Positions 23,318 through 39,217 of a stretch of 41,802 nucleotides of DNA are shown one piece after another. The notes below the pieces were generated by a model. That model saw only the letters and a list, made by a program, of their open reading frames with translations. It was not told where the DNA came from and did not search any database. The DNA lies in the IMG/VR virus record IMGVR_UViG_2541047852_000009; one strand, 5' to 3'. The stretch comes from a virus (Duplodnaviria; Heunggongvirae; Uroviricota; Caudoviricetes). A program made the translations under genes and the position numbers. Position 1 is the stretch's first letter, and each line of letters begins with the position of its first letter.

Positions 23318-23851
23318 TTATCTGTCGATACCCCAGCACGCCAGCGCGCTCTCCTGGTCACGACGGGATACCTGACCGTAGCAGTTGTTTGAACGAATAC
23401 GGCAGTCTCTGCCACCGTCCTTAATCCACCAGCGAATCGCCTCACACGCTCCCCTGCGATCACCTGCATTAATTCGTTTATAAAACGTCGACGGGAAACA
23501 CTTACCGGGACCAATGTTGTACGGACAGAATGACGCGATCCCCGCTTTCTGGGGTTCGCTCAATGGCACTTTGATGTTTTTCTCCACCCATGCCAGCGCC
23601 TTATCACGCTCAATGGCGTTAACCCGGTCGCATTTTTCCTTCGACAACTTCATGCCCGGAACGACAGGTTTGCCATCCACCAGGATGGCACCGCGGCAGA
23701 TGGTCCAGATACCCGCACCATCACGGTATGCCGTGGTGTGGTTACCTTCCTTTTCATCCAGAAACTGGTCGAGAATGTCAGGCGCAGGCGCACCAGCGGC
23801 AATCAGCGCCAGAACGGCAGCCGACAGGCCGTATCTGATTTTTGCGTTCAT
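23318..23851 (-). CDS. R: Endolysin, phage lysozyme with N-terminal SAR (signal-anchor-release) segment
   Basis: 177 aa; hydrophobic Gly/Ala-rich N-terminus (GLSAAVLALIAAGAPAP); lysozyme-like core; pairs with a pinholin. Confidence 0.85.
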   Translation of the reverse strand: MNAKIRYGLSAAVLALIAAGAPAPDILDQFLDEKEGNHTTAYRDGAGIWTICRGAILVDGKPVVPGMKLSKEKCDRVNAIERDKALAWVEKNIKVPLSEPQKAGIASFCPYNIGPGKCFPSTFYKRINAGDRRGACEAIRWWIKDGGRDCRIRSNNCYGQVSRRDQESALACWGIDR

Positions 23852-24543: not shown

Positions 24544-24759
24544 TTACTCTCCCCGTGCCGCCTTACGACGGTCCTCTCTGATTTTGAAATACAGGTTAGT
24601 CAGATATGTCAGCAGCCCAAACAGCAGACTCCCCAGCACGCCTATTGCCGCCCACTGAGACGGGGAAACCCTGTCCAGCAACTGCAGGAACCAGTAGCCC
24701 GTTCCCACCGCTGACGTGGTGTATGACACACCTGTTGTGATTTTTTCCATCTGGTACAT
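24544..24759 (-). CDS. S: Holin, S21-like class II pinholin
   Basis: 71 aa; two TM segments; C-terminus [15 protein letters not shown] matches phage 21 / Stx-phage S as recalled. Confidence 0.85.
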
Positions 24760-24834: not shown

Positions 24835-25104
24835 TTACATCATCATTTCGCCGTCAGGCTGAGGCTCTTCACTACCGTCAGGCTGAGACCCGACGCCATC
24901 TGAAACAGTACTGTCATCCGCAATGCCTTCCGGCTCCGGAACCGCTGGTACGCCCAGCAGCTCATCCAGAATGGCATCCACTTCTGCATCAAGACGCGCC
25001 TCAAGGTTCTGGCGGAGTTTCTGTTTCAGTGCACTCCGGACTTCTTCAGAGCGCAGGACTTCCTTCACTGCCTCAGCAGTGACCAGGGATGTGATTTCTG
25101 ACAT
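24835..25104 (-). CDS. Hypothetical acidic protein upstream of the holin
   Basis: 89 aa from internal ATG 25104 (MSEITSLV...); listed ORF extends to 25278; weak RBS. Confidence 0.35.
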   Translation of the reverse strand: MSEITSLVTAEAVKEVLRSEEVRSALKQKLRQNLEARLDAEVDAILDELLGVPAVPEPEGIADDSTVSDGVGSQPDGSEEPQPDGEMMM

Positions 25105-25141
25105 GGGATTTTCTCGTTGAAAGGTGTTGTCAAGAAAGTGA

Positions 25142-25324
25142 CTACGGAATGAGCGGATCTTCGGGTTTGCTTCCGGCTGACTGACTGGCGCTGATTCTCT
25201 CAGCGGCCCTTTTATCAATCTGCCTGCGCCAGAAATCGCGCACTGCCCTGTACCCACCCGAAAGAAGATACATAACACAGACTGCCGTACAGAAGTACAG
25301 CATCACCTGATGAATAAATGTCAT
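25142..25324 (-). CDS. Small membrane protein (60 aa)
   Basis: Single hydrophobic segment then basic tail; ATG 25324. Confidence 0.4.
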   Translation of the reverse strand: MTFIHQVMLYFCTAVCVMYLLSGGYRAVRDFWRRQIDKRAAERISASQSAGSKPEDPLIP

Positions 25325-25421
25325 AATTTCTTACCGTTATGGTTGACAATGAGAACTGTTTTCATTTAAAAAACCGATATACGAAAGCATCTTTTCTTTA
25401 CATTCTCCATTGGGATTACCT

Positions 25422-25459
25422 CCGCCAGCTTCCATTCCTGCCGCTGGCGGCCTTTTTTT
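25422..25459 (+). terminator. Plus-strand rho-independent terminator immediately 3' of the NanS-p-like gene
   Basis: 8-bp stem ccgccagc/gctggcgg (25422-25429 / 25443-25450) followed by TTTTTTT (25453-25459). Confidence 0.45.
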
Positions 25460-25460
25460 A

Positions 25461-27431
25461 TCATGCCGCAGCATCCGCGTTGTTCACTTCCACCTTCACA
25501 CTGTCAATCAGCAGCGTATATGTCGCCGCCTTTGATATGCCTGTCAGTTGCAGTTTGTCCGCCGCCCCTGATGCCGGAGATTTCACCAGTGTGAACGGCG
25601 TCCCCCGTTTCTCATCCAGTACCGGCGTCACCTGAATGCTGTTGTTTCCGGCAAACTCAAAAGCCAGTGTGTGCCATCCGTTATCAAAGACCCCGAACGT
25701 ATCCAGCTTCGCATTCGGCTTCTTGTGGTGCATCGCGTTCAGGTTCGTCGCATCCGTCTGCAGGAAGAAGGACATCAGCATGTCGTTGCCTTCCTCTGCC
25801 AGCGTCACTCCCTCCGGCAGGGACGACAACTGCCAGTAAATGCCCAGGGCAAACTGATTCGGCACCAGTGAACCCGGCAACTTAAACCGTACGCTCACAC
25901 GTCCCCCCTTCTTCAGTAACTCCACTCCCTGTCCGGCTGCATCATGCTCCAGAAACCAGATGTGGTTTTCCGGTTTATTCAGTTGCAGGGCCTTACCTCC
26001 CGTAGCCCCCGCATCACTGACCACCGCTTCAGCAATGTTTTTGTTAACATTGTCTCCGCTCGCCGGTTTGTGATAATAGCGCCAGCCCTGTGATGCCAGG
26101 TCTTCGCCGGACGCCAGCAGACTCATCAGGGTTCGGTTACTGACCGGGGCTTCCGGCTCTCTCTCCGTACCTTCACCGGAAGGTCCGGTGGGCTTCACCG
26201 TATCAGGCTGTTTTCCGGTAATGAATTCAGCGTTTCTCCCGGCATGCACAAGAATCGCCGTTGCCAGACGGTCGGAAATAATCCCACGACGTGCCCATGA
26301 TCCAAAATGCGTTTTACGGTCAGCCGTCGTCCAGGTTTTGGCGTCCGTTCGACCACCGGCTCCGTAATACCCAATATCCGCAACATCCGGATCTTCTGAC
26401 GGCTCGTTGGTACCCACATTTCGCCCGTTTTCATCCGTCATAAACGGCACAAAGAAGATTTTTTTTGCGGATTTCGTCTTGTATGCACCATACACCGCAT
26501 CGTATTGCGAAGAATAAGTCTGCTTCCAGTAGTAGGTCGTGTCGCCACAAATCCAGGGAACTGATGACGGAGAGCCCCCGAGACACTGACCTCCGAATTC
26601 CGACAGGTCAGAACGATATTTTTCCACCATGGAATCAAACAGCCCCGGCTGAGTGGCGTATGCACCCTGTTTCAAATCAAACTCGCCCTGCATCCAGACC
26701 ACTGCAAGCAGAATATTTTTAGGGTTGGCCTTCAGTGCGGCCTGAGTACGGGTAAGCAGGTCCTTGTACAGTGGCTTATCTACACCCCAGCGTGCCGAGG
26801 TCTCGCTTGCGCCGGTGGATTCGCTGAAGGTACCTTCATCGCCCGCCAAAAATGCAGAACCACCACGGCAGCACGGAACCAGAAGAATACCGGCATTCGC
26901 CGGAATAAACGGCAACAATTTCTTCGCGATATGTAATCCCTGCCCCACGCATCCATACTGAGCTGCGCTGGCTTTCGGGTGTGAAAACTTACTCAAATCC
27001 TGAACATCATGCAGGCAGTGGTCCGCAGGAATAATGTCATTGTAGTTACAGGACGCACCACCCGGCGTGACAGTGCTGCGACGCGCCAGCTGTTTAATAC
27101 GCGGGTCCGGACGGTCATATGTCTCCGGCAGCGGAAGCCCTTCACCATACGCCATACCGTTTGACTGCCCGGCCAGGGCAACAACAAAGTAATACTCCGG
27201 GTTGCTGGTGGTGCTGATAACTGCGCCTTCTCCATCCGACGGCTTCACCACCACAGGTGTGGTGACATTACCTTCTGCGACAATCGCCTGAATAAGTGCT
27301 GCGCCATCATCCGTATACGAAGAAAACGGCCCGCCGTATGGTTGCCATCCTTCACGAATTTTTTGAGCAAGCGCATCCGCAAGGTCTGACGGCGATGCCG
27401 CCCTGACCACGTCATAGTGTTTAAATGCCAT
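25461..27431 (-). CDS. Prophage NanS-p-like sialate O-acetylesterase (DUF1737 N-terminus plus SGNH/esterase domain)
   Basis: 656 aa; position between the tRNA cluster and the holin is where 933W-type phages carry this gene; strong RBS GGAGGA. Confidence 0.7.
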   Translation of the reverse strand: MAFKHYDVVRAASPSDLADALAQKIREGWQPYGGPFSSYTDDGAALIQAIVAEGNVTTPVVVKPSDGEGAVISTTSNPEYYFVVALAGQSNGMAYGEGLPLPETYDRPDPRIKQLARRSTVTPGGASCNYNDIIPADHCLHDVQDLSKFSHPKASAAQYGCVGQGLHIAKKLLPFIPANAGILLVPCCRGGSAFLAGDEGTFSESTGASETSARWGVDKPLYKDLLTRTQAALKANPKNILLAVVWMQGEFDLKQGAYATQPGLFDSMVEKYRSDLSEFGGQCLGGSPSSVPWICGDTTYYWKQTYSSQYDAVYGAYKTKSAKKIFFVPFMTDENGRNVGTNEPSEDPDVADIGYYGAGGRTDAKTWTTADRKTHFGSWARRGIISDRLATAILVHAGRNAEFITGKQPDTVKPTGPSGEGTEREPEAPVSNRTLMSLLASGEDLASQGWRYYHKPASGDNVNKNIAEAVVSDAGATGGKALQLNKPENHIWFLEHDAAGQGVELLKKGGRVSVRFKLPGSLVPNQFALGIYWQLSSLPEGVTLAEEGNDMLMSFFLQTDATNLNAMHHKKPNAKLDTFGVFDNGWHTLAFEFAGNNSIQVTPVLDEKRGTPFTLVKSPASGAADKLQLTGISKAATYTLLIDSVKVEVNNADAAA

Positions 27432-27922
27432 GAATCCTCCCGGCCGGGATAATATTGTGAGTAAAATAAGGAGCGGGCTGAAGTCCGGAAGTTACAGGAC
27501 AATGGCAGAAGAGAGACGACAGCCCGCAATTCGAAAAAGGCCACGCAGTTGCGCAGCCTTATGAATTCTGGTTAAAATCCATTCGATTATAAAAATGTAT
27601 ATCTCATGCTGTTGCCCGAACCCACTCGGTTTTTTTTTGCCCACAAGAAAGCCCCTCCGGAGAGGGGCTAAAGCCGCGTATCTGTATCATCATGCACATG
27701 GTGCCGGGTGCCTCCCGGTGAGTTCAGTATCAGCACCTGAACCCGCACAGAAAGGATAAGGGTCGGTGACAAAACACCAGTCGCTGATTGCCCCTCCGCA
27801 CAGGGGGATTCACCATGCCAGTTTCTTTTAACAAACTCCCCGCAAAACAGACAACTGTCAACCGTCTGAATTGTGAGACATTTAAAAAAAAGCCCGCAAA
27901 AGCGAGCCGGGAAAAATAAGTC

Positions 27923-27999
27923 TGGCGCGTTGTACTGGATTCGAACCAGTGACCGATTGCTTAGAAGGCAATTGCTCTGTCCGGCTGAGCTAATAACGC
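27923..27999 (-). tRNA. tRNA-Arg (anticodon TCT), phage-encoded
   Basis: Hand-folded cloverleaf, 77 nt: anticodon loop cTTCTAa, T-loop TTCGAAT, 3' CCA encoded; one A-C mismatch in the acceptor stem. Confidence 0.75.
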
Positions 28000-28012
28000 A
28001 GGGTACAGATAA

Positions 28013-28089
28013 TGGACCGCCATCGAGGACTCGAACCCCGCGCAACCAGCTTCGAAGGCTGGCGCTCTATCCTGATGAGCTAATGGCGG
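28013..28089 (-). tRNA. tRNA-Arg-like (anticodon TCG by hand fold)
   Basis: 77 nt: acceptor ccgccat/atggcgg, anticodon stem ccagc/gctgg with loop cTTCGAa, T-loop TTCGAGT, CCA encoded; unusual C1 start. Confidence 0.6.
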
Positions 28090-28096
28090 TATGTGA

Positions 28097-28172
28097 TGGT
28101 GGCCCTTGCTGGATTTGAACCAGCGACCTAGCGATTATGAATCGCTCGCTCTCACCACTGAGCTAAAGGGCC
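28097..28172 (-). tRNA. tRNA-Ile2/Met (anticodon CAT), ileX/ileZ-like
   Basis: 76 nt: acceptor ggccctt/aagggcc, anticodon loop tTCATAa, T-loop TTCAAAT, CCA encoded; closely resembles E. coli tRNA-Ile(LAU). Confidence 0.8.
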
Positions 28173-28212
28173 GGGAGCCGCATAATAACGACGCGTAATT
28201 AATTCTTCAATA

Positions 28213-28491
28213 TCATCCGTTCTGGCTGACTAAATCCTGTACTTCCCGAACCGTCTGCTCAAAACGTTCAGTCTCCAGCTCAACGCCAATTGCACGACGC
28301 CCGAGCGCCAGTGCCGCTTTCACTGTCGAACCCGACCCCATGAAAAAATCTGCAATCAGGTCACCCGGACGACTGCTAGCGCTGATTATCTGCTGCAGCA
28401 TTTCTGCCGGTTTTTCGCACGGATGTTTCCCGGGATAGAACTGCACCGGTTTATGCGTCCAGACATCGGTATACGGCACCTGCGCCGTCAC
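28213..28491 (-). pseudogene. Remnant of a DNA methyltransferase (C-terminal ~92 aa only)
   Basis: Translation contains the methyltransferase motif DLIADFFMGSGSTVKAALALGRRAIGVE; no N-terminal domain; a terminator hairpin lies in the upstream in-frame region. Confidence 0.45.
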
Positions 28492-28549
28492 GCCAAAATA
28501 CCGCCGCAGTCGGCATTCACAACCACCAGCGCATTTAACGTTCAGCCAT

Positions 28550-28574
28550 AAAAAAACCCGCTCGCGGCGGGTTT
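28550..28574 (-). terminator. Rho-independent terminator ~70-90 nt downstream of Q (tR'-like)
   Basis: Minus strand reads aaacccgccgcgagcgggttttttta; fits the short terminated late-leader transcript of lambdoid phages. Confidence 0.55.
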
Positions 28575-28642
28575 AAGCTGTGTGGCGAAGTAACCACTCT
28601 TAACATACTGACATACTTTTTGCGGACCGCACTAATCATTTT

Positions 28643-29023
28643 TTACTTTTTTAGCAGCCAGTCGTCCATCTCCAGTCTTACCCCCAGCACAGACAAACAT
28701 CCGTCAATAAACCCTTCGGCTATCTGCATCTCAATTCGTATTGCTTTTTCGCTTTTCTTTCTCGTCCTGGCTATCTGTCTTTTTGATATTCGCAACAAAT
28801 AATGAGCAATGAGAAGCGAATACTCCTCAGGTTTTTTCTGCTTCAGACGAGCAAGACAGTTTTCAATGATAAGTCCGTCATCATCGCAGCAGGCCGGACG
28901 TGGTTTAGTGGCAGATGGTAAAAGTCCTTTGAATCCGGCAGCGATCGGAGAATAGTCCACCCCGGTGTTACCACTTGCCGCCCATGCCCCCCAGCGTTCA
29001 AGAACCATCTGAATATCACGCAT
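28643..29023 (-). CDS. Q: Late antiterminator Q (phage 21 / 933W type)
   Basis: Starts MRDIQMVLERWGAWAA...IAAGFKGL...CCDDD, matching Stx-phage Q as recalled; start at internal Met 29023. Confidence 0.8.
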   Translation of the reverse strand: MRDIQMVLERWGAWAASGNTGVDYSPIAAGFKGLLPSATKPRPACCDDDGLIIENCLARLKQKKPEEYSLLIAHYLLRISKRQIARTRKKSEKAIRIEMQIAEGFIDGCLSVLGVRLEMDDWLLKK

Positions 29024-29040
29024 CAACTTTCTCCACAAAA

Positions 29041-30030
29041 TCAGGACAGCACACCAATCGCCAGCGCGCGATCGATAAAACGAAATATCAGCTCCAGTTG
29101 GGAACCATACTTCTCTTCAAATGCCACGGTATCCGCATGCAGTTCGTCATGGTGTTTTCTGCACAAAGGCAACACAAAAAGGTCATGCGCTTTTGTACCC
29201 ATTCCACCCTGACCATGACCAATCAGGTGATGAGGATCGTCGGCTGGCTTACCACAACATGCACACGGCTGCGTCTTAACCCAGCGCGTGTACTTTTCAT
29301 TAACCCAGCGACGACGTTTTGGGCGTAACATAAAAGACTCCGGCGACTCCGGATCCACTTTCAGCGCCAGCACCTTTTTCGCCTTATCCTGGATGATGCT
29401 GGTGGCAGTAACCGAAGGCACAAGGTCACTTTCCCGGGTGACAGACGGCACAACAGGCTTCGGTAATCTCAGTGCCTTACGGGCTGCACTTTCCGGTAAG
29501 GCATCCGCCAGGTCATTACGAATCAGCCACCAGCACAGTTCCGGCATTGTCACAACGTGACTGTCATCAAAACCAAGATCACAGCGCACAACAGATAACA
29601 CCCAGCGGGCACAGTTATCCGTTGCCATTGATTCCAGCCGTTCCGTGAACTGGTCACGGAGAAGATTGTCACAGTGCCAGCACAGACGGATTGCGCCTGG
29701 CGCGTGCCGCATTGTGGTCATGTTCTCGCTGTGCCAGTCGGAATGAGGCCACTGACAGCCCTTTTCACGAAGTAACCAGCTCTCAAGGCATTCCACGCCA
29801 CCAGCACGACGGATCACCGCCTCATGGCGGAACACGGCCCGAACGGCAGGATCATCCGCCAGCGGTTGTGATGCTGCCGGAACGGCACCACTGGCAAAAG
29901 ATGAATAACGTTCCGGCTCAGGCTCCAGCAGGACACGCCCCTGCATAAACAGGGGCATCAGCTCTGAACCGGGTCTGAACAAGACGATCCCCATACGCGG
30001 GGCTATTTCAGGGGTCAGCAGTGCTCTCAA
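29041..30030 (-). CDS. DUF968-type protein (Cys/His-rich C-terminal domain)
   Basis: 329 aa; C-terminus CACCGK...HHLIGHGQGGMGTKAHD...CRKHHDELH; found upstream of Q in lambdoid phages. Confidence 0.55.
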   Translation of the reverse strand: MRALLTPEIAPRMGIVLFRPGSELMPLFMQGRVLLEPEPERYSSFASGAVPAASQPLADDPAVRAVFRHEAVIRRAGGVECLESWLLREKGCQWPHSDWHSENMTTMRHAPGAIRLCWHCDNLLRDQFTERLESMATDNCARWVLSVVRCDLGFDDSHVVTMPELCWWLIRNDLADALPESAARKALRLPKPVVPSVTRESDLVPSVTATSIIQDKAKKVLALKVDPESPESFMLRPKRRRWVNEKYTRWVKTQPCACCGKPADDPHHLIGHGQGGMGTKAHDLFVLPLCRKHHDELHADTVAFEEKYGSQLELIFRFIDRALAIGVLS

Positions 30031-30039
30031 CGTAGAACC

Positions 30040-30555
30040 TCACAGCACAATCTGTTTCAGTTTCTGTACCGCTTTCCCCATATCCGCCATAGCATCAACA
30101 AACTCATCAAATTTACGACTTGCCATTCCATACGCCTGGAGGATTTCCAGTTTCAGAGGATCCAGTTGCTTTTTAATTTCCGCACGATCATTAAATTTCT
30201 TCTCTGCTTCTTCCGCAGCCCTGATCAGCTCCTCAGCATGCCTGCGTAATTCATCCGGAGTAACGGTCTTTTTAATCACAACGGGTTCCTCTGTTTTTAC
30301 TGGTATTTCACTATTTACTGCCTGATGTCCAAATTTAGGATGATGTAACGTTGTAGTTCTTCCATCATTCGCAACGACCAGAAGTCCACTGTCGCGGATA
30401 ATGCCAATGAGTATCTCCTTATCCCTTTTATTCAGTAGACTGTACGCCTGCACTTTCTGTGATATCTGGGTCAGTGTTGCGCCTTCCGGCATTCGTTCAA
30501 CAAAACGTTTAACCCTGGATAAAACTGGCTGCAGATGGGGTGGTGTAATTCTCAT
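30040..30555 (-). CDS. Hypothetical protein (N-terminal wHTH-like, C-terminal coiled coil)
   Basis: 171-aa ORF; composition only. Confidence 0.4.
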   Translation of the reverse strand: MRITPPHLQPVLSRVKRFVERMPEGATLTQISQKVQAYSLLNKRDKEILIGIIRDSGLLVVANDGRTTTLHHPKFGHQAVNSEIPVKTEEPVVIKKTVTPDELRRHAEELIRAAEEAEKKFNDRAEIKKQLDPLKLEILQAYGMASRKFDEFVDAMADMGKAVQKLKQIVL

Positions 30556-30570
30556 GCTCCACGCCTCCCA

Positions 30571-31368
30571 TCAGTGAACGGTATCGAGCAGCTTTAACAG
30601 CTCAGGGAATCGGGATTCGAAGAAATGCGGCTGCGTCTCGCGCGGATTTGCAGGACTGGTGATGTTCTTGCCGAACATGCAGCCTTTCGCCGTCAGCGAC
30701 CAGAATTTTTTGATGTTGTTAATCCCGGTACGGCTGTATCGTTCGCGCTGCTCGACGATCCCCAGCTTCACCATCTGGTGATATGCCTGATTAGCCGTCA
30801 GGCGGATACCATACTGCTTCAGCAGTGCACTCAGTGACAGCGTAGGGCGACTTGAGCCATCGGGTGCATCGGCAGGAGCATCAATGGCATAGCGCGGTGC
30901 CAGATTCGGTAAGCCAACAGCCTCCTGGAGTTTCTGACAGGCACCAAGCACAGATGAGTTAGACAGGTTTAACTCCCGACGCATAAAGTCCAGCAGAATC
31001 ACACCAGCCTGCATCTTGTCAGCAGCCTGCCCGGATAATTTTTCCGGTGCGCTGGTTACCGTATCGAAAGTACGGATCACCTTCAGATGGAATGACGGAC
31101 TGATCCACATTGCATAGGCATACACCAGTTCTTTGCAGACATACGTCCCCTGGTTATTTCCGCCACGAATAACGTTAACTGGCTCTATATTGACCGAGTT
31201 GCAAATCTGCAACTCGCTTATTAAATGTTCAGTTTGCTCATTGCGGAGCCAGAATGCAGGCTTATGCTTATCCAGAGAACCGGCAGCCCTGTGAAGATCG
31301 TTCAGGCTGTAACGACCATAAGCATCACGACGAACTTCAATACCATCAATGACCATCAGATTATTCAT
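30571..31368 (-). CDS. KilA-N domain protein (antirepressor-like)
   Basis: N-terminus MNNLMVIDGIEVRRDAYGRYSLNDLHRAAG...KPAFWL typical of the KilA-N domain. Confidence 0.6.
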   Translation of the reverse strand: MNNLMVIDGIEVRRDAYGRYSLNDLHRAAGSLDKHKPAFWLRNEQTEHLISELQICNSVNIEPVNVIRGGNNQGTYVCKELVYAYAMWISPSFHLKVIRTFDTVTSAPEKLSGQAADKMQAGVILLDFMRRELNLSNSSVLGACQKLQEAVGLPNLAPRYAIDAPADAPDGSSRPTLSLSALLKQYGIRLTANQAYHQMVKLGIVEQRERYSRTGINNIKKFWSLTAKGCMFGKNITSPANPRETQPHFFESRFPELLKLLDTVH

Positions 31369-31387
31369 ACTTCGTTTCTCCTCTTAA

Positions 31388-31777
31388 TCAGGCGGCTGCA
31401 CCCGCCGGTTTCTCATACTTACTGATAGTGATCTCGACCTTCCCTTTCGGGATAACCGGTCCCCACTCAACCAGCATTCTTTTCACCTGACTGTCGTCCT
31501 CCCACACACCCGCGTGGGTCAGGGCGTCAAACAGCGCCTTGTTATAGTTGTCCAGATCGCGGATCCGGTTATCCGGAGGAAACAACACGATCTCCACTGA
31601 AGCAGGTGCCGACGTTGGTTTTGGCAGACGACGTAACTGCTCAACTATTGCTGCACACGCCGCGCTCTGGAATTTTCGCCCCGCCGCGCTTATCAGGCTC
31701 TTACCAGCAAACGCCCCTTTGTTGGGGTGTCGCCAGTACGTGTTCACGCTGGGCGGGAAAGGCAGGATCAGCTTCAT
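31388..31777 (-). CDS. rusA: Holliday-junction resolvase RusA
   Basis: 129 aa; PPSVNTYWRH and DLDNYNKALFDALTHAGVWEDDSQV resemble the RusA family. Confidence 0.75.
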   Translation of the reverse strand: MKLILPFPPSVNTYWRHPNKGAFAGKSLISAAGRKFQSAACAAIVEQLRRLPKPTSAPASVEIVLFPPDNRIRDLDNYNKALFDALTHAGVWEDDSQVKRMLVEWGPVIPKGKVEITISKYEKPAGAAA

Positions 31778-32100
31778 ACTTTCAGGCCTCTCTCATGTAA
31801 CCAGTGAGTTGCACACAGCCTTGCGTTTTCCTCACCGGCAAGCAGTGAGCGGATAATCCCGACCGCCTCGCTGTCGTCGTCCTTCACCGCGGTATGAAGC
31901 GTGATCCCCCGGGCCACACCACGCTTTATCGTGATGACGCCTTTTTTCTCCAGTGCGCGAAGATGCTCCACCGCTGCATTCACCGAACGGTATCCCAGCA
32001 TGGTTGCCACCTCCTGATTGGTTGGCGGGAAGCCACGTTCTTTCTGATAAGAAATCAGCATATCCAGCACCTGCTGCTGGCATTGAGTTAACGTCGTCAT
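31774..32100 (-). CDS. LexA-type DNA-binding domain protein lacking the S24 autopeptidase domain
   Basis: 108 aa; clear similarity to the LexA N-terminal wHTH (LT..QQ.V.D.I......G.PPT..E.A..LG.RS.NAA.EHL.AL..KGVI.I..G..RGI.L); no Ala-Gly cleavage site or Ser/Lys dyad region. Confidence 0.55.
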   Translation of the reverse strand: MTTLTQCQQQVLDMLISYQKERGFPPTNQEVATMLGYRSVNAAVEHLRALEKKGVITIKRGVARGITLHTAVKDDDSEAVGIIRSLLAGEENARLCATHWLHERGLKV

Positions 32101-32750
32101 GCCGCCATCTCCCTGACCAGTTTTTCCGCCTGCTGGCGAACCTGCGCCAGAAACGCCTCACCACATGCCTCAAGTTCATCGCGCCCGATGTAGCTGATTG
32201 CCGGTCCCTTCCAGGTCTTGTCGAAAACAGCAATAGCACCAGCGAAGAAAGCGCCTGTCGGCACCTGCTTCTCATCCTTCGGGATAAACCAGGCAGGCAG
32301 TTCAAAACCAATACGCCCGCGAATAAAAGCAATATGATCTGCATCTTCCGGCCACCACACTTCGCTGGTGGCAGCTTTGATCAGGAAAACATAGCGCCCG
32401 CCTTTATCACGCATGGCACTGGCATGCTTCATGATGTAACGCATGCCGGTGATGTATTGCCCCTCATGCTGACTGGCGCGGCTGTATGGGGGATTACCAA
32501 AGGCAGCACCTTTAAGCTCCGCAAGGCGTTCTGACCAGTCATGCGCCAACGCGTTGTCTTCCGCCGTGTAATACGCAGCACATTTGGCGTTATCACCGTC
32601 AGTAAACAGATCCAGAACAAACGGGCCAAACAGAGTGTTAATTCCCCAGAAAATGTTGTCCGGCGTGCGCCACTGATCGCCCGCTTCCTTCAGTTCATGG
32701 GCTGGTTTGTTCCGCAGTTCCGCCAGCGCCTGGCAATATTTATTACTCAT
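32097..32750 (-). CDS. Phage N6-adenine DNA methyltransferase (orphan)
   Basis: Catalytic motif FGNPPYS; start ATG 32750 overlaps the upstream stop (TAATG); the listed ORF has an 11-aa N-terminal extension. Confidence 0.7.
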   Translation of the reverse strand: MSNKYCQALAELRNKPAHELKEAGDQWRTPDNIFWGINTLFGPFVLDLFTDGDNAKCAAYYTAEDNALAHDWSERLAELKGAAFGNPPYSRASQHEGQYITGMRYIMKHASAMRDKGGRYVFLIKAATSEVWWPEDADHIAFIRGRIGFELPAWFIPKDEKQVPTGAFFAGAIAVFDKTWKGPAISYIGRDELEACGEAFLAQVRQQAEKLVREMAA

Positions 32751-33244
32751 TAAGCCCCCACGTAATTCCCTGAGAGATACCACTCTTCACCTGATGCAGC
32801 CCGCTTACTGCTTTTCCGTAAACACCGTTCACGACGCGCCAGAAAATTGTTTCGTTCTGGCTGGGAGTGGCTTTCACGGAATGCCGCCATCCACACCGTT
32901 GCAGCACGACGGTATAAGCCCCTGGACTCCAGTTCTTCCGCCTGGCGGGTCAGGCACAAAATCACCCGCGGGTCGTTAGTGCCGACATAGAAATTGCGCA
33001 CAGGTCTGGTTTCACGAACTGGTTGTGGTTCCGGATCCTGCGCTCTCTCAGTCAGGCGTGGGAAATGTCTGCGTGTATCTCCTTCACAACGGTGAGCCAC
33101 ACGCCCACTCTGACGTAACTTGCTTGCTGACTGCAGAACGCGCTGCCGTGAGTAACCAGCAAAAGCATCCGCAATGTCTCCGGAAGTACACCCCGGATGG
33201 GCTTCAATGAATTTCTGAACGTCATTCAAAAGACTCATGCTCAC
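32750..33244 (-). CDS. PerC-like transcriptional regulator (tentative)
   Basis: C-terminal AEELESRGLYRRAATVWMAAF resembles the PerC/Pch signature as recalled. Confidence 0.35.
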   Translation of the reverse strand: MSMSLLNDVQKFIEAHPGCTSGDIADAFAGYSRQRVLQSASKLRQSGRVAHRCEGDTRRHFPRLTERAQDPEPQPVRETRPVRNFYVGTNDPRVILCLTRQAEELESRGLYRRAATVWMAAFRESHSQPERNNFLARRERCLRKSSKRAASGEEWYLSGNYVGA

Positions 33245-34236
33245 CCCCTGAATCCTGCCGGGATCTGGCTGTAGTCCACGTTGTCGTAACTGGCTTTGAA
33301 GTACGGGTCCTCGCGTCTGACTGCAGATACCGCAGGAACTTCCCAGGATTCTTCGAAATGACGATCCGGACCAAAGAACGTCGACGCCTGCTTCACGAAC
33401 TGGGTACCGGTATTTCCAGAGACACGCACCCAGGCGGCATAGCGTTTCACACCGTCGAGCATGGTTTCGGGTGTCACACCTTCCCTGATTCGGGCTTTCC
33501 AGGCTTTAAAAGCGGCGGATTTTGAATTACCACCAGCACGTTTGGGATATTCCTGCCAGGCCTGTTCAAATTCCGGTGAATATTCCTGTCTGGCAGAACG
33601 CGCTGGTGCAGACGCGTCAGCGGATGCGCCAATAGTGTTTTTAGTCTCCGTTGTAATCTCTGTAGTAATCTCTGTAGTAATCTCTGTATTTGTATCAACA
33701 TTCGGCGTATCCCCTGTTCCGTTATGACGTCGGGGGGTGTTCCGTTTTAACGTAATAGCTGTATCGCTGATTGCATTATTGCTGTTACTTTCTGGCGAAA
33801 CAGAAGAAGGTGTGGTGATGGCCGCAATTGCCTGTGGGTTGATCCCGACAAACAAAATATTGCTGCATTTCACCCCATCGAGCATTTCCACCGTGCGTAA
33901 ATCCAGAGTAATAAACCCTGCATCGCGCAGACGCTTCAGCGCATCTGCGGTTTCCCTTTTCCCGAAACCAAACTGCTCAGCAAACGCCTGGTAGCTTCTT
34001 TGCAGTTTGTCGCCCTGAAAACGCTTGCGATATCCCAGCAACGCTCCGGTGTGCTCATCCCTGACCTCTGTCGGGCGGTACCAGTAAACGATCTCTGAAA
34101 GCAGAGCGATAGCCGTCGCATCCGGACGCCCACTGGGTAGTCGAATATATTTCCACCAGGTCGCAGGTGTAACATTGCCGGAAATATTAATTTGACCAAT
34201 AGCCATAACTTCCGGTGTGGGGGCGTAACGGCTCAT
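33241..34236 (-). CDS. Replication initiation protein, O-like (replisome organiser), with internal origin iterons
   Basis: 331 aa; central EITT x4 repeat encoded by tandem 12-bp DNA repeats; C-terminal domain typical of phage replication proteins. Confidence 0.6.
   Translation of the reverse strand: MSRYAPTPEVMAIGQINISGNVTPATWWKYIRLPSGRPDATAIALLSEIVYWYRPTEVRDEHTGALLGYRKRFQGDKLQRSYQAFAEQFGFGKRETADALKRLRDAGFITLDLRTVEMLDGVKCSNILFVGINPQAIAAITTPSSVSPESNSNNAISDTAITLKRNTPRRHNGTGDTPNVDTNTEITTEITTEITTETKNTIGASADASAPARSARQEYSPEFEQAWQEYPKRAGGNSKSAAFKAWKARIREGVTPETMLDGVKRYAAWVRVSGNTGTQFVKQASTFFGPDRHFEESWEVPAVSAVRREDPYFKASYDNVDYSQIPAGFRG
33661..33696. repeat. Three perfect tandem copies of GTAATCTCTGTA inside the O-like gene (candidate ori iterons)
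   Basis: Direct reading: gtaatctctgta x3, preceded by a partial copy and followed by an AT-richer stretch. Confidence 0.55.
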
Positions 34237-34532
34237 ACAACCTCCTTCCGCAGCATGAGAATTGTGTAGCCACGCGCAGGTTGTAGTCTGGCTTTTGCAT
34301 CAATAGTAAGCGTTGCAATTTTTCGGATATGAAGATAACCAGCTCTTTCCAGTGCCAGGGTTTCCCTGAATATCGCTTGCTTAGAACAACAGCAGAAATC
34401 AGCAAGCACCTGATGATCAATAACTCTCTCGCCTTCACCGTCTGAAGAACCCGACATCAAAACACGCAACATAATCAGGCGCTGAATCGGGTTATCGAAA
34501 GCACATCCGCACACAAACTGAAAACAGTTCAC
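34233..34532 (-). CDS. Hypothetical protein (possible wHTH)
   Basis: 99-aa ORF with 4-nt overlaps to both neighbours. Confidence 0.35.
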   Translation of the reverse strand: MNCFQFVCGCAFDNPIQRLIMLRVLMSGSSDGEGERVIDHQVLADFCCCSKQAIFRETLALERAGYLHIRKIATLTIDAKARLQPARGYTILMLRKEVV

Positions 34533-34765
34533 GCCACACCTCCCAGACGCTTAAACATTTTTCCGGAGCAAAAGGCTATAAGCGGCATACTGACGCGGTA
34601 ATTACGGCCCAGCGGTTCACAAACCACCTTCTGACATTCACGGTCAACCAGGCTAACACGTAGAACATGCCCTGCAGGCGTGGTGTACCACTGCCCAACT
34701 GTAGGAATTGATGTTTTTTTACGCTGAAGAAAACGGCAAATATTGAGAATCAACGGATTAAGCAT
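34529..34765 (-). CDS. Hypothetical protein
   Basis: 78-aa ORF, translationally coupled within the early-right operon. Confidence 0.35.
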   Translation of the reverse strand: MLNPLILNICRFLQRKKTSIPTVGQWYTTPAGHVLRVSLVDRECQKVVCEPLGRNYRVSMPLIAFCSGKMFKRLGGVA

Positions 34766-35594
34766 GACGATGCCCTCCGCTGATATTAAGGAGACGGTGA
34801 ATATGAAAATTAGCCTTATCCGCCAGACGAATACGTTCAGCCTGCAAGTTAAGAAGGGTTTCTACCAGAACCTGATGTGCCTGCGGATCCGAAAGAGTTA
34901 CCTTGCGCAGAGCACGTAGTGCAGTTGTTACATAACTGAGTTTATGTAAGTCGTCATCATTCAGACGAGAGAGGGCTGGGACAGTAGCCATGATGGCAGC
35001 CTCCGTATGCAATGGATAACTTCCACCACCGGAAACGCCAATTTCGCTGGTGGTGAACTGAGCAGGGTTGGCGTAACCGGCGCATACGGAAACCGGCGCA
35101 CCTTTCGGTGCCCCCACCCAGCCCACCATAATTTGGGTATAGCTGAGTTGTAGCAACAAAAAAGACGCTAACGCGCCAATTGTCGCCGTATGCAATTCCA
35201 GGACGCCAATCCCGGCACCCGCTTTATAAGGTGCCTGAACAGTGTAACGTCCCGGAATGGCAGAATCAATGTGCTGGTGGTCCTTCACACTCAACAAAAT
35301 CACGCCTGAATTTCCACAAAGGACTAAAGCACTCATGCGGGTAGTCTTTGCGAAGATAGATAACGCGCTGTGTTTCTGGCTCCCAACGAATAACATGGAC
35401 ATAAAGCCCTCTTCCGTCACGAAACCAGCGGTTAAGTTCCTGCACAACTCGCCCCCCACAGTCAGGTAAAGTTCTCTGTGGTTACTTACAGCCAGGTGAT
35501 TTGGTAATCTGCATTCATGCCGTAACAACAGGTGTTCAGCGACACTGACCACCAGCTGTTGCGACAAACGATTATTTGCCGTTAAACTGTTCAT
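34758..35594 (-). CDS. Conserved prophage protein (YdaU-like, tentative)
   Basis: 278-aa ORF directly downstream of the cII/YdaT-like gene, the position YdaU holds in Rac; no recognisable motif. Confidence 0.35.
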   Translation of the reverse strand: MNSLTANNRLSQQLVVSVAEHLLLRHECRLPNHLAVSNHRELYLTVGGELCRNLTAGFVTEEGFMSMLFVGSQKHSALSIFAKTTRMSALVLCGNSGVILLSVKDHQHIDSAIPGRYTVQAPYKAGAGIGVLELHTATIGALASFLLLQLSYTQIMVGWVGAPKGAPVSVCAGYANPAQFTTSEIGVSGGGSYPLHTEAAIMATVPALSRLNDDDLHKLSYVTTALRALRKVTLSDPQAHQVLVETLLNLQAERIRLADKANFHIHRLLNISGGHRHA

Positions 35595-36154
35595 GCGTTA
35601 GTTTCTCCACAGACACAAAACGCCACGACGCCCGGAGCTGCACACTCGCGGGCGTCACTCTTTTCTGGAGCGCAAAAGATTTTGTAGACCAGTGCTGCAT
35701 GCTCCTGGAGCTTCGAAATTGACAGATACAACTCATCATTAATTGCTGTCTGCTCGTGTGGCTCCACTACCCCATCTTCGATTGCCGAACGAATCTGCTT
35801 TGAGTAACTCCCGATCTGTTCGATGACTTCCAGCAGGCGCTGGTTTATATCGGCGTTCTCTACTTCCTCAATTTCAGGAAGCGATACAAACACCCCACCA
35901 GCAGACTGTGCGACAGCATCCGCAATGTAGTGAGTGCCAGCCGCGCGCTGTAAAATCATTGCCCATCCCAGCGGGAAAATCTGATCGCCATCTGCACGAA
36001 GGCGGTTGAATAAAGCGTTCTCTGTTACATCCAGCCACTCAGCAGCTTCAGCGTACCCCCCCGGCAACGCCGCGATAGTTTTTCTGACAGCTTTCACGTA
36101 CCACTCAGGCTGTTTTTCTACTTTCCAGTGATGCTTACCCACGGTTAGCCTCAT
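35591..36154 (-). CDS. cII-like / YdaT-like regulatory protein (tentative)
   Basis: 187-aa ORF immediately downstream of cro; positional analogue of cII. Confidence 0.35.
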   Translation of the reverse strand: MRLTVGKHHWKVEKQPEWYVKAVRKTIAALPGGYAEAAEWLDVTENALFNRLRADGDQIFPLGWAMILQRAAGTHYIADAVAQSAGGVFVSLPEIEEVENADINQRLLEVIEQIGSYSKQIRSAIEDGVVEPHEQTAINDELYLSISKLQEHAALVYKIFCAPEKSDARECAAPGVVAFCVCGETNA

Positions 36155-36185
36155 CGTTCTGTGGTTAAAAATTGAAGGTGTTCTG

Positions 36186-36386
36186 TTAATCTTTCGGATA
36201 GATATCCGGTCTTAAGTCAGATTTCGTAATTGCACCTGACGTGCATTGCTCAAGTTTTTTAGCCAGCACAAAACTGGCTTTTTTATAACCATTGAAAACC
36301 AGCCGTAAGTAGCCTGGTGTTGAGCCAACTTTTCCGGCCAACTCGCCCTGCTGTTCTTTGGTTAAAGAGTCCCAATACGCTTTCAT
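36186..36386 (-). CDS. cro: Cro-like HTH repressor (YdaS-like)
   Basis: 66 aa from ATG 36386 (MKAYWDSLTKEQQGELAGKVGSTPGYL...); divergent from cI; the listed ORF start at 36410 would cover an operator palindrome. Confidence 0.6.
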   Translation of the reverse strand: MKAYWDSLTKEQQGELAGKVGSTPGYLRLVFNGYKKASFVLAKKLEQCTSGAITKSDLRPDIYPKD

Positions 36387-36402
36387 ACAATATGTACCTC
36401 CG

Positions 36403-36460
36403 ATGTACATATTACATGATTAAAATGAACCTTCAAGATACTTGTACCTTAACGGTACAA
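36403..36460. promoter_or_regulatory. Immunity-region operators and divergent promoters
   Basis: Palindromes ATGTAcatatTACAT (36403-36417) and TTGTACCttaacGGTACAA (36442-36460) between the cro and cI starts; outer inverted repeat AATGAA...TTCATT. Confidence 0.45.
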
Positions 36461-36476
36461 GGGTTTTAATTTCATT

Positions 36477-37151
36477 ATGAAAACAGTCCATGACATCCGG
36501 CGGTCTAACGCCAGAAAACTGAGAGATGGTGTTGGCGGGAATTCTTCCTTTGCCACCATGATTGATCGCGAGCCAACCCAGACCAGCAGGTTTATGGGAG
36601 ATGGTGCTACTAAAAATATCGGTGACAGCATGGCACGGCACATCGAAAAATGTTTCGACCTGCCTGTCGGATGGCTTGATCAAGAACACCAGACAACAAA
36701 CATCACAAAAAAACCTGATGTTTCAATTACTAACAAACAAATAACGTTAGTCCCTGTCATATCATGGGTACAGGCCGGAGCATGGAAAGAAGTTGGCTAT
36801 TCTGAGGTTGATTTGAGCACAGCAGAAACTTATCCCTGCCCTGTACCCTGTGGCGAAATGACTTATATCTTGCGGGTGATTGGTGATTCAATGATTGATG
36901 AGTACCGCCCGGGAGACATGATTTTTGTAGATCCTGAAGTCCCTGCCTGCCACGGTGACGACGTTATTGCATTGATGCACGATACAGGCGAAACCACCTT
37001 TAAGCGGTTGATAGAAGATGGAACACAGCGTTACCTCAAAGCATTAAACCCAAACTGGCCTGAACCTTACATTAAGATCAACGGTAATTGCTCTATAATT
37101 GGTACAGTAATTTTCTCAGGAAAACCAAGAAGATACAAAATAAAGGCCTAA
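36477..37151 (+). CDS. cI: cI-type repressor (N-terminal HTH, C-terminal S24 LexA-like autopeptidase)
   Basis: 224 aa; Ala-Gly cleavage site in VQAGAW; catalytic Ser in GDSM and Lys in TFKRL. Confidence 0.85.
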   Translation: MKTVHDIRRSNARKLRDGVGGNSSFATMIDREPTQTSRFMGDGATKNIGDSMARHIEKCFDLPVGWLDQEHQTTNITKKPDVSITNKQITLVPVISWVQAGAWKEVGYSEVDLSTAETYPCPVPCGEMTYILRVIGDSMIDEYRPGDMIFVDPEVPACHGDDVIALMHDTGETTFKRLIEDGTQRYLKALNPNWPEPYIKINGNCSIIGTVIFSGKPRRYKIKA

Positions 37152-37162
37152 TCAATATTTAT

Positions 37163-37186
37163 AACCTGCTTCGGCAGGTTTTTTTA
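37163..37186 (+). terminator. Rho-independent terminator after cI
   Basis: cctgc ttcg gcagg followed by TTTTTTT. Confidence 0.6.
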
Positions 37187-37189
37187 TAC

Positions 37190-37222
37190 TTGACAATGTA
37201 CCCTTGAGATACATAATGTATC
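37190..37222 (+). promoter_or_regulatory. Early-left (pL-analogue) promoter with overlapping operator palindrome
   Basis: Consensus -35 TTGACA (37190-37195), 16-nt spacer, -10 CATAAT (37212-37217); perfect palindrome GATACATAATGTATC (37208-37222) over the -10. Confidence 0.5.
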
Positions 37223-37223
37223 T

Positions 37224-37700: not shown

Positions 37701-37837
37701 ACAAAACAGAGAAGAGCATCACCGGACGACGGGCTCATAACCCAATCCATCCGGGCGGCTGCCACCGCAGGTGTTCTTCTCTGTTTTGTGGAGAAACTAA
37801 CCGACCTTACAGGGTCGATATGATGAGGAGCAGCAAA

Positions 37838-38200: not shown

Positions 38201-38265
38201 TATCGTTCTTAATTAACTGATTATTTATCTCATCACTGAATATCTTTATATAGTGAGGACTTATT

Positions 38266-39090: not shown

Positions 39091-39217
39091 TTTCATTACT
39101 GCAAATGCCCCTGCGGGGGCATTTATGGAAACGTAATTAACTCAATAATCGCCTGATGGCGAGGGTTTTCTTTAACCAAAATTCAGCGCGGTGCAGCGCA
39201 TATACGTGGAGAACAAA

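Follow-up and report, generated by a model that had tools for sequence, protein, structure and literature searches.

Late-gene control region of a putative stx-negative lambdoid prophage: a small RNA module and a 4-bp cargo junction where a toxin slot had been proposed

In the late region of Stx-converting phages stxA and stxB are located between a Q/tRNA module and nanS-p. The stretch of phage DNA analyzed here (the window, 41,802 nucleotides) displays the same neighbors without a toxin, and raises the question of whether the ∼490 bp between its tRNA genes and its esterase gene (27432-27922) are an empty toxin slot, as the first-pass annotation had it, or a region with contents of its own. 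On the evidence, this part of the window very probably serves as the late-gene control region in a long-tailed, stx-negative lambdoid prophage and shares its scaffold with Stx-converting phages. The architecture is not new but was already known from Tree et al. 2014 (PMC4104026), since both small RNA genes in the 490-bp gap have been described before. Identical copies of the region are present in ExPEC/APEC genomes; SF-468, HS13-1 and PU-1 carry the identical prophage, and roughly 225 genomes match at ≥95% identity.

The order read initially from the letters alone, with Q followed by a terminated leader, three tRNAs, a NanS-p-type esterase, a P21-type holin and a lysozyme, is real and lies on the minus strand. 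It holds for the elements named, but a methylase pseudogene between the leader and the tRNAs had been overlooked. The leader elements and protein genes are:

28643-29023, minus strand: late antiterminator Q, 126 aa from the RefSeq start (PF06530 Phage_antitermQ, 177 bits)
28554-28574, minus strand: intrinsic terminator resembling tR', in the short late leader (8-bp stem and U7 tail, -11.7 kcal/mol)
28213-28509, minus strand: pseudogene of a DNA methylase that keeps just the C-terminal third (PF01555, covering 135-220 of the 221 profile positions)
27537-27560, minus strand: conserved 10-bp hairpin with U5 in the esterase 5' leader, on the late strand (-15.7 kcal/mol, z -3.8)
25461-27431, minus strand: homologue of NanS-p-type prophage sialate O-acetylesterases, 656 aa (DUF1737, SASA and DUF6645)
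24544-24759, minus strand: P21 S-type holin, class II, pinholin family (PF04971, 112.5 bits)
23318-23851, minus strand: lysozyme with a SAR-like N-terminus, YGLSAAVLALIAAGAPAP (PF00959, 85.3 bits)

Q has an alternative TTG start at 29038, carries the label antiterminator Q family protein in the identical locus of SF-468, and lies in DNA 97.7% identical to the Q region of the Stx2d phage LC567830. The leader terminator follows ∼70-90 nt downstream of the Q stop, within a block that is 97.7% identical to the Stx2d phage leader. A consensus search for the PR' promoter gave no convincing match. The methylase remnant was left by a 1.2-kb deletion (positions 2062-3285 of L001 are missing in the window), and RefSeq describes it as “incomplete; missing N-terminus”. 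In the esterase, a SASA domain is flanked by phage-specific N- and C-terminal domains and the gene lies upstream of the lysis genes, by which sequence criterion the product is a predicted sialate O-acetylesterase of the NanS-p type. The holin is a “class II holin family protein” in RefSeq, and the translated N-terminus of the lysozyme, MNAKIRYGLSAAVLALIAAGAPAP, is Ala/Gly-rich and hydrophobic; the two have the sequence features of a pinholin/SAR-endolysin pair, with SAR behavior predicted. The hairpin in the esterase leader, which none of 200 shuffles equaled in stability and which is kept in all aligned relatives, is the fourth terminator-like element on the way from PR' to the esterase.

The tRNA genes form a unit with its own boundaries:

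28182-28210, minus strand: promoter-like site upstream of the cluster, at the position of “pT” in 933W (TTGAAG-17-TATTAT, 9/12 matches, consensus only)
28097-28172, minus strand: tRNA-Ile2 type, anticodon CAT, orthologue of 933W ileZ (ARAGORN; Rfam tRNA 76.4 bits)
28013-28089, minus strand: tRNA-Arg, anticodon TCG, orthologue of 933W argN (ARAGORN; Rfam 56.0 bits; alignment with argN)
27923-27999, minus strand: tRNA-Arg, anticodon TCT, orthologue of 933W argO (ARAGORN; Rfam 64.4 bits; alignment with argO)
27884-27908, minus strand: intrinsic terminator at the end of the tRNA unit (U8 tail after a stem at 27908-27891; -11.5 kcal/mol, z -2.8)

ARAGORN returned the anticodons CAT, TCG and TCT, so that the hand-folded TCG of the middle gene was correct, and all three Rfam scores exceed the tRNA gathering score of 29 bits. 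In the 933W record the putative tRNA promoter pT is annotated 10 bp upstream of ileZ, and the hairpin homologous to our post-tRNA terminator is marked there as a terminator ahead of stx. In the literature collection consulted, no paper matched ileZ/argN/argO in combination with stx; the names are those of the GenBank record of 933W.

The CAT tRNA is named tRNA-Met, after its anticodon, by ARAGORN and by RefSeq, the latter in the genomes with the identical locus. That it should be an elongator tRNA-Met is nevertheless very unlikely, given how it departs from metT/metU all along the acceptor stem, the anticodon stem and the T stem. Its sequence is 2 nt away from that of 933W ileZ and identical to K-12 ileX at 68/76 positions in the alignment, and copies in close relatives, such as an 89%-identical locus, are labelled tRNA-Ile in RefSeq. 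Moreover, its acceptor stem (GGCCCTT/AAGGGCC) keeps C4:G69 and C5:G68, the TilS identity elements reportedly described by Ikeuchi et al. in 2005. By these sequence features it is a predicted tRNA-Ile2 of the ileX/ileZ type, a class with lysidine at position 34 of the CAU anticodon and isoleucine charging, and not a tRNA-Met.

The expectation that late genes would be enriched for the codons read by the trio was not borne out, as ATA and CGA are not raised in them. Per 1000 codons, the late block from the esterase to TerL has 3.5 ATA, 8.6 AGA, 6.9 AGG and 5.2 CGA, early genes have 8.0, 10.2, 5.8 and 4.4, and structural ORFs 5.4, 3.3, 4.9 and 3.1, respectively. The E. coli average is about 2 AGA and about 1.2 AGG per 1000 codons; both codons are several-fold above these averages, and to an equal extent in early genes. 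With 15 ATA and 6 AGA among 320 codons, stx2A is the strongest consumer of the trio's codons, and it is the gene missing from the window.

What, then, does the 490-bp interval contain? The statement that it lacks toxin genes was accurate, as there is no stx ORF, and the 9-T run reported at 27630-27638 is there. The description of an empty slot with only hairpins and that run, however, did not stand, as almost the whole interval is a conserved sRNA module, found behind stxB in Stx phages as well and made up of a full-length STnc100 gene and a convergent anti-sRNA of the AsxR/AgvB type:

27639-27847, minus strand: STnc100-family sRNA gene (EcOnc27/sRNA103 of EHEC; related to PasD; RF02076)
27584-27638, plus strand: anti-sRNA gene of the AsxR/AgvB family, convergent to STnc100, its terminator mutated (sub-gathering scores for RF02703 and RF02702)
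27549-27578, plus strand: candidate anti-sRNA promoter, proposed from sequence (TTGCGC-18-TAAAAT)

The STnc100 match covers model positions 1-206 of 206 at 136.6 bits (gathering score 47, E 5e-31), and the gene has its own terminator at 27669-27650 (-17.2 kcal/mol). Its helices are conserved, with double changes in 6/37 pairs across 7 relatives. Folded as a single sequence, it shows no significant gain in stability over shuffles (z -1.3), and membership was therefore rested on the covariance-model score and the conserved helices in the alignment. A consensus search for its promoter gave no convincing match; a perfect TTGACA is present at 27861-27856 without a good -10 hexamer. The sRNA EcOnc27 binds Hfq, overlaps in part with the STnc100 prediction and is named sRNA103 in EDL933 (PMC12711010), the EHEC homologues have been detected as Hfq-bound transcripts (PMC4104026; PMC12711010), and STnc100 has been quantified via RT-PCR in STEC vesicles (PMC12370729). 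The gene in the window is thus a predicted sRNA gene, Hfq-bound expression being known for the EHEC homologues only.

It could be argued that the interval is protein-coding, or acts merely in cis as the 5' leader of the esterase, without any trans-acting sRNA. In many relatives RefSeq places a small “hypothetical protein” at the STnc100 region, ORFs of 43-54 aa occur in the interval, and late read-through transcripts must contain it as esterase leader. The RefSeq ORFs, however, are flagged partial or pseudo and run antisense to the late direction, and neither the end-to-end RF02076 match with its own terminator nor the Hfq-bound and RT-PCR-quantified homologues fit such a reading, which we regard as highly improbable.

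The anti-sRNA gene is less well preserved. It scores below both gathering scores (51.2 vs 63 bits for AsxR, RF02703; 31.8 vs 56 for AgvB, RF02702), and the 9-T run is its terminator tail, lengthened by a GC-to-TT change. In sister alleles of CE10, G6/7, SCU-204 and STEC1585 the intact terminator GCCCGA/UCGGGC is kept (-11.1 kcal/mol), whereas in the window the sequence reads UCGGUU, the stem is down to 4 bp before the U9 tail, and stability is reduced to -4.2 kcal/mol. With the stem crippled in this way, the anti-sRNA of the window is probably poorly terminated or decaying and, considering the sub-gathering scores as well, may be non-functional. Its family affiliation rests on a ∼40-nt conserved 3' part, a variable 5' part and a convergent arrangement with a second sRNA 3' of the moron site; at positions 17-46 only 2 sites differ from AsxR, and placement and orientation are as in 933W. 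The -10 hexamer of the candidate promoter ends 6 nt ahead of the Rfam model start, and the promoter columns are invariant in seven alleles, 933W AsxR included.

The 5' region of the anti-sRNA, CGAUUAUAAAAAUGUA, matches the allele of neither AsxR nor AgvB, and occurs with an intact terminator in roughly 160 E. coli genomes, mostly extraintestinal. AsxR proper is characterized by a 5' region that can pair with the terminator loop of FnrS. When the 5' 22 nt were paired with K-12 FnrS by RNAduplex, a weak test with such short A/U-rich seeds, 933W AsxR paired at the FnrS terminator (-10.4 kcal/mol), and by the same weak test the window allele paired at an unrelated site (-6.7 kcal/mol). One could speculate, with a low expectation of being right, that the allele belongs to a further specificity class of prophage anti-sRNAs, acting in ExPEC as a sponge for a core sRNA other than FnrS or GcvB, and that the window copy is undergoing inactivation. 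If this were true, the window would represent a lineage that is losing the regulator via a terminator mutation.

The true site of toxin or other cargo is not the 490-bp interval but a junction of 4 bp:

27881-27884, no strand assigned: cargo (moron) junction (the BLAST alignment breaks off at 27885 and picks up again at 27880)

It is located between the T-run of the post-tRNA terminator and an A/T-rich stretch upstream of STnc100. At this point the Stx2d phage LC567830 has 1335 bp that consist of the stx2 promoter, stx2A, stx2B and 41 bp. In the alignment the right-hand boundary, TTAAAT..TCACAATTCAG..TTGAC, is the same at stx1, stx2, DUF3927 and empty loci, and relatives carry at the junction nothing, DUF3927, TerB+DUF3927, a tolA-like gene, stx1 or stx2. 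The position of stx is thus a sharply defined junction common to several alternative morons. The tRNA-Arg and STnc100 are joined in one place in 1609/5426 complete E. coli genomes (∼30%), and about 1/3 of the sampled records, O157:H7 non-Stx prophages included, have no insert at all.

Was stx the cargo that is missing here? Relative to LC567830, what is missing from the window is precisely the stx2 promoter with stx2AB and the 41 bp, the flanks are collinear, short T-run and ATCTG microhomologies occur at the junctions, and the prophage backbone resembles Stx1/Stx2 phages (∼92-94% identical over ∼75% of the length to VT1-Sakai, Stx2a/2d and Stx2c phages). All of this could be read as a recent derivative of a Stx-converting phage from which stxAB was deleted. 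However, comparison of the BLAST blocks and junction sequences with LC567830 revealed only 4 unaligned bases and no stx remnant of whatever length, and the flanks are just 92.8% (left) and 79.9% (right) identical to that phage. Stx phages and stx-bearing genome loci reach at most about 85% over the region, a TerB/DUF3927-bearing locus is closer (93-97%), and cargo-free junctions of the same form are found in >1000 genomes. In a search for a near-identical Stx phage or stx-bearing locus the best were about 80-93% identical to the window, and recent stx loss was rejected on that ground; we hold it to be most improbable. The nearest occupied relative, MS10860, instead carries TerB+DUF3927, with 93% identity in the left flank and 97% in the right. 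As stx-bearing loci are only ∼80-93% identical, stx is not likely to be the lost cargo.

The STnc100 gene itself bears on the origin of the cargo-free state. It is chimeric, with a 5' half 95.8% identical to copy 1 of MS10860 and 3' 60 nt 100% identical to copy 2. With moderate confidence we place the window in a lineage whose occupied members have TerB+DUF3927 and two tandem STnc100 copies, and with similar confidence we attribute the cargo-free state to recombination at T-runs and between the two STnc100 copies. A competing explanation, with a substantial though less than even chance in our estimate, is that the junction was never occupied: the tRNA/terminator and sRNA/esterase modules would have been joined directly, the hybrid STnc100 would stem from two single-copy phages, and the occupied tandem-copy loci would be derived. 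The same cargo-free junction (T-run, AAATG/AAATA, then TCACAATTCAG) indeed occurs in diverse backgrounds, including O157:H7 and phage PhiR12, and in mosaic lambdoid phages crossovers commonly fall within conserved stretches, of which the 28-45-nt identical core of STnc100 is an example. Against it, the closest relative by identity is an occupied locus with tandem copies, and a single intramolecular crossover between the two copies of MS10860 would give the STnc100 3' end of the window exactly (100%, 60 nt). The direction of the cargo and tandem-copy events is not readable from the junctions, as recombination of two single-copy cargo-free phages gives the same sequences.

From the families named, a mechanism can be proposed for the region. 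PR' is always active and is terminated during lysogeny (PMC7547250). In a lysogen of this prophage, PR' transcripts would end at the leader terminator. Upon induction, Q would drive RNA polymerase past four terminators (leader, post-tRNA, STnc100 and esterase-leader hairpin) so that read-through would reach the esterase, the holin, the endolysin and the structural genes. In the lysogen, three small units insulated by terminators might be expressed independently: the ileZ/argN/argO trio from the pT-like promoter, the Hfq-binding sRNA STnc100/EcOnc27, and the convergent AsxR/AgvB-type anti-sRNA in its probably poorly terminated or decaying form.

There is little new in the locus. Its interest lies in that the scaffold of Q, tRNAs, sRNA pair and esterase found in Stx phages is common without the toxin. 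Annotation pipelines leave STnc100 and the anti-sRNA unmarked and label the ileZ-type tRNA as tRNA-Met, and consequently the gap looks “empty” to readers. Furthermore, ExPEC lineages have AsxR-family anti-sRNAs but no toxin, which weakens the idea of a functional tie between this RNA and stx.

The proposal of a toxin-free relative of Stx phages is supported by comparison with known systems. In Stx1 and Stx2 phages, the spacer that runs from stxB to nanS-p is collinear with the interval. Of the parts of a Stx-converting late region, Q, the terminated leader, esterase, holin and endolysin are present, and the toxin pair stxA/stxB that separates the Q/tRNA module from nanS-p in those phages is absent. 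With 933W/Sp5, order and orientation match for every element but stx. The tRNA genes hardly differ (by 2 nt in ileZ), argO is followed by a homologous terminator, the convergent pair occupies the same positions between stxB2 and L0105 (STnc100 207.7 bits, AsxR 88.1 bits), and esterase, P21-type holin and lysozyme follow. The window differs from 933W in lacking stx2AB and the stx promoter, in a methylase pseudogene where 933W has none, in its proteins (Q 49% aa identity; esterase 60% full-length to L0105), in an STnc100 5' half of another sequence type, in the 5' region and weakened terminator of its anti-sRNA, and in a prophage remainder that is long-tailed and lambda-like, unlike that of 933W.

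In Sakai, convergent sRNAs (AsxR/EcOnc02 and EcOnc27) lie 3' of the moron site downstream of PR' in Sp5, and also in Sp3, 4, 9, 10, 11, 15 and 17, which are mostly non-Stx (PMC4104026). The window fits these lambdoid pairs, with convergent sRNAs between the moron position and a conserved downstream ORF and with the conserved ∼40-nt 3' and variable 5' parts of the anti-sRNA, but its background is ExPEC/APEC and not EHEC, its 5' allele is another one, and its terminator is mutated. The Pas RNA preprint describes an arrangement also present in the window, in which an STnc100-family RNA immediately precedes a SASA esterase, holin and lysozyme come next, and Q is close by. Adjacent tRNA matches are interpreted there as integration-site remnants, whereas in the window and in 933W the tRNA genes are carried by the phage and have a promoter-like site and a terminator of their own. 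Finally, the long-tailed Stx phages VT1-Sakai (Sp15), Stx2_95/Stx2_112808/ASU11 and Stx2c match the structural half of the window at 92-94% over ∼75% and the early half at ∼91.5% over 73%, and the Q region is 97.7% identical to Stx2_112808; at the junction the long-tailed Stx phages hold stx1 or stx2, and their methylase is intact, whereas the window has neither.

The interval between the third tRNA gene and the esterase gene (27432-27922) is, by alignment, conserved sequence that Stx phages possess too. A BLASTN search of this stretch against 50,697 phage records matched 334 of them, mostly Stx1- and Stx2-converting phages, in which the matched stretch lies between stxB and the esterase gene. 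The first-pass annotation was largely right in what it observed, and right to read this as a toxin-free relative of Stx phages. Its "empty slot" of ~490 bp, however, is a misreading, because a known convergent sRNA module fills the gap. Against locus L001, from Stx2d phage LC567830, the region aligns as follows:

28509-27885, L001 3286-3911: 92.8% identity; methylase 3' end, tRNAs, terminator
27884-27881 (4 bp), L001 3912-5246 (1335 bp): unaligned; stx2 promoter, stx2A, stx2B, 41 bp
27880-27300, L001 5247-5847: 79.9% identity; stxB-to-esterase spacer and esterase start

The cargo site is therefore a point and not a 490-bp gap. At this junction relatives carry DUF3927 with or without IraM, TerB plus DUF3927, a tolA-like gene, stx1 or stx2. 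The right-hand boundary, TTAAAT..TCACAATTCAG..TTGAC, is common to all cargo states in the alignment of occupied and empty loci (A3), and the cargo-free junction consists of the terminator T-run joined to the TTTTTAAAT stretch, which precedes STnc100 in occupied loci.

The late region is on the minus strand and contains the following features, with one RNA opposing them:

upstream of tRNAs, minus: DUF968 gene and Q antiterminator (PF06530, 177 bits)
28574-28554, minus: strong leader terminator ~70-90 nt past Q, U7 tail, -11.7 kcal/mol
28509-28213, minus: DNA-methylase pseudogene, profile positions 135-220 of 221 left
28210-28182, minus: promoter-like site upstream of tRNAs
28172-28097, minus: tRNA, anticodon CAT (ARAGORN; Rfam tRNA model 76.4 bits)
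28089-28013, minus: tRNA-Arg, anticodon TCG (ARAGORN; 56.0 bits)
27999-27923, minus: tRNA-Arg, anticodon TCT (ARAGORN; 64.4 bits)
27908-27891, minus: post-tRNA terminator, U8 tail, homologous to the 933W terminator
27847-27639, minus: full-length STnc100 sRNA (RF02076; 136.6 bits, gathering 47, E 5e-31)
27669-27650, minus: STnc100's own terminator, -17.2 kcal/mol
27584-27638, plus: AsxR/AgvB-type anti-sRNA (Rfam models AsxR, AgvB), convergent to STnc100
27560-27537, minus: conserved esterase-leader hairpin plus U5, 10-bp stem, -15.7 kcal/mol, z -3.8
downstream of tRNAs, minus: esterase, 656 aa (DUF1737, SASA, DUF6645)
downstream of tRNAs, minus: DUF1378 and DUF826 genes
downstream of tRNAs, minus: P21 S-type holin (PF04971)
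downstream of tRNAs, minus: YdfR gene
downstream of tRNAs, minus: lysozyme with an Ala/Gly-rich hydrophobic N-terminus

The methylase pseudogene, absent from the first-pass annotation and marked by RefSeq as missing its N-terminus, sits between the leader and the tRNAs. Relative to LC567830, a 1.2-kb deletion (junction 28510-28540) has removed two thirds of the methylase, from its N-terminal side, along with a small hypothetical gene. In lysogens PR' is active all the time and its transcription is terminated (PMC7547250), and nanS-p is also known from non-Stx prophages (PMC10462455).

Across the whole 41.8-kb window ARAGORN calls three tRNA genes and no more, the three that had been claimed; all score above the Rfam gathering of 29, and the hand-folded TCG anticodon of the middle one is correct. 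The CAT tRNA is predicted to be Ile2-type because it is near-identical to 933W ileZ (2 positions differ), resembles K-12 ileX (68/76 identical) and is unlike metT/metU in every stem. The tRNA-Met label of ARAGORN and RefSeq was rejected as the usual anticodon-based mislabel of an ileZ/ileX-like body; close relatives, such as an 89%-identical locus, are labelled tRNA-Ile by RefSeq. In L001 (3708-3784) the middle anticodon is TCT, against TCG in the window and 933W, and the argN position therefore switches between AGA/AGG and CGA/CGG reading among relatives.

A check of the late genes for enrichment in tRNA-read codons had also been suggested. Per 1000 codons, ATA, AGA, AGG and CGA number 3.5, 8.6, 6.9 and 5.2 in esterase-to-TerL genes, 8.0, 10.2, 5.8 and 4.4 in early genes, and 5.4, 3.3, 4.9 and 3.1 in structural ORFs. 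AGA and AGG in the prophage genes exceed E. coli averages, though this is not specific to late genes. The 320 codons of stx2A include 15 ATA and 6 AGA.

Seven STnc100 relatives have a consensus fold in common, with double changes in 6 of 37 pairs. The convergent anti-sRNA, CGAUUAUAAAAAUGUAUAUCUCAUGCUGUUGCCCGAACCCACUCGGUUUUUUUUU, scores below both gatherings (AsxR 51.2 bits, gathering 63; AgvB 31.8, gathering 56), and shows four changes from 933W AsxR in the first 16 nt and two in the linker, while in the terminator 3' arm GC has become UU. This last mutation makes the hairpin less stable (-4.2 kcal/mol, against -11.1 when intact) and extends the U7 tail to a U9 run, the 9-T run of the first-pass annotation. 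Alleles of CE10 (O7:K1), G6/7, SCU-204 and STEC1585 combine the same 5' region with an intact GCCCGA/UCGGGC stem; the window allele is matched in 158 complete genomes at 95-99% identity and in 23 at at least 99%. In a weak test, given short A/U-rich seeds, the window allele did not clearly keep the FnrS pairing of AsxR: the 5' region of 933W AsxR pairs with its target FnrS at the FnrS terminator (-10.4 kcal/mol), and that of the window at a different site (-6.7 kcal/mol). In L008 (O157 F8492), L009 (GN04979), L001 and L002, an unrelated second allele, whose terminator reads GCCCGCG...CGCGGGC and whose 5' part is G/U-rich (GUUUUGUUGUUUAUUCC), replaces the AsxR-type RNA at the equivalent of 27584-27638; this allele has no Rfam match.

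The esterase-leader hairpin (27537-27560, minus) overlaps the -35 hexamer of a candidate anti-sRNA promoter (27549-27554, plus), so that one sequence seems to serve both strands. Beyond it, two elements of the 5' leader (27432-27536, minus) are kept in every aligned relative: GCGGGCTG ... CAGCCCGC, which form a long-range inverted repeat, and the palindrome CCCGGCCGGG, directly beside the Shine-Dalgarno GGGAGGA.

A 100% identical 1-kb segment occurs in ExPEC/APEC genomes (e.g. HS13-1, SF-468, PU-1, APEC O2:K1:H7). tRNA-Arg and STnc100 are joined at one place in 1609 of 5426 complete E. coli genomes, and an even sample of the ranking puts records with no insert at all, O157:H7 included, at ~1/3. 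The nearest non-identical locus, UPEC MS10860 (left flank 93.2%, right 97.0% identical), has TerB+DUF3927 as its junction cargo and STnc100 in two tandem copies (L016 3178-3415 and ~3672-3905); GN04979 likewise has the tandem copies. The ~250-bp element dividing the copies has its own terminator (GGCCCATCCGCTCCGGTGGGCC plus T-run) and is possibly another sRNA. The STnc100 of the window is chimeric: the 5' half matches MS10860 copy 1 at 95.8% identity and the last 60 nt match copy 2 at 100%, with the crossover within their identical core. Cargo loss from an MS10860-like ancestor, in two recombination steps, fits the window; confidence in it is moderate, because the same sequences would result if the events had run the other way or if single-copy phages had recombined with each other. 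Recent loss of stx is disfavoured, since the junction is without remnants and stx-bearing loci are just ~80-93% identical.

The whole prophage is a long-tailed lambda-like phage. Its structural half (1-25000) has 92-94% identity over ~75% to VT1-Sakai, Stx2_95, Stx2_112808 and ASU11 (O80:H2), and its early half (25000-41802) ~91.5% over 73% to Stx2c phages. In the early region two RNAs lie side by side, adjoining DUF4222/ash-family genes:

35046-35133, minus: C4 antisense RNA (RF01695, 80.7 bits)
35158-35234, minus: isrK (RF01394, 61.2 bits)

This pair, also present in phage PhiR12_2_star, is a P1/P7-type C4/IsrK immunity-RNA module.

The whole arrangement of Q, tRNAs, sRNA pair and esterase is already described; mild novelty is confined to the anti-sRNA, for its ExPEC allele and mutated terminator, and to the chimeric STnc100. 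Tree et al. 2014 reported convergent EcOnc02 (= AsxR) and EcOnc27 3' of stx2B in Sp5, at a "moron" site downstream of PR', with comparable pairs in prophages Sp3, 4, 9, 10, 11, 15 and 17; among the anti-sRNAs a ~42-nt 3' part is conserved, and a 5' part of 14-18 nt varies (PMC4104026). EcOnc27 (EDL933 sRNA103), an sRNA that binds Hfq, coincides in part with the STnc100 prediction (PMC12711010), and in STEC STnc100 lies 75 nt past the stx2 operon (PMC12370729). In 933W, STnc100 (207.7 bits) and AsxR (88.1 bits) lie between stxB2 and L0105, both RNAs as in the window, and the window tRNAs are orthologues of ileZ, argN and argO, which in the 933W record are preceded by a putative promoter, pT, and followed by a terminator.
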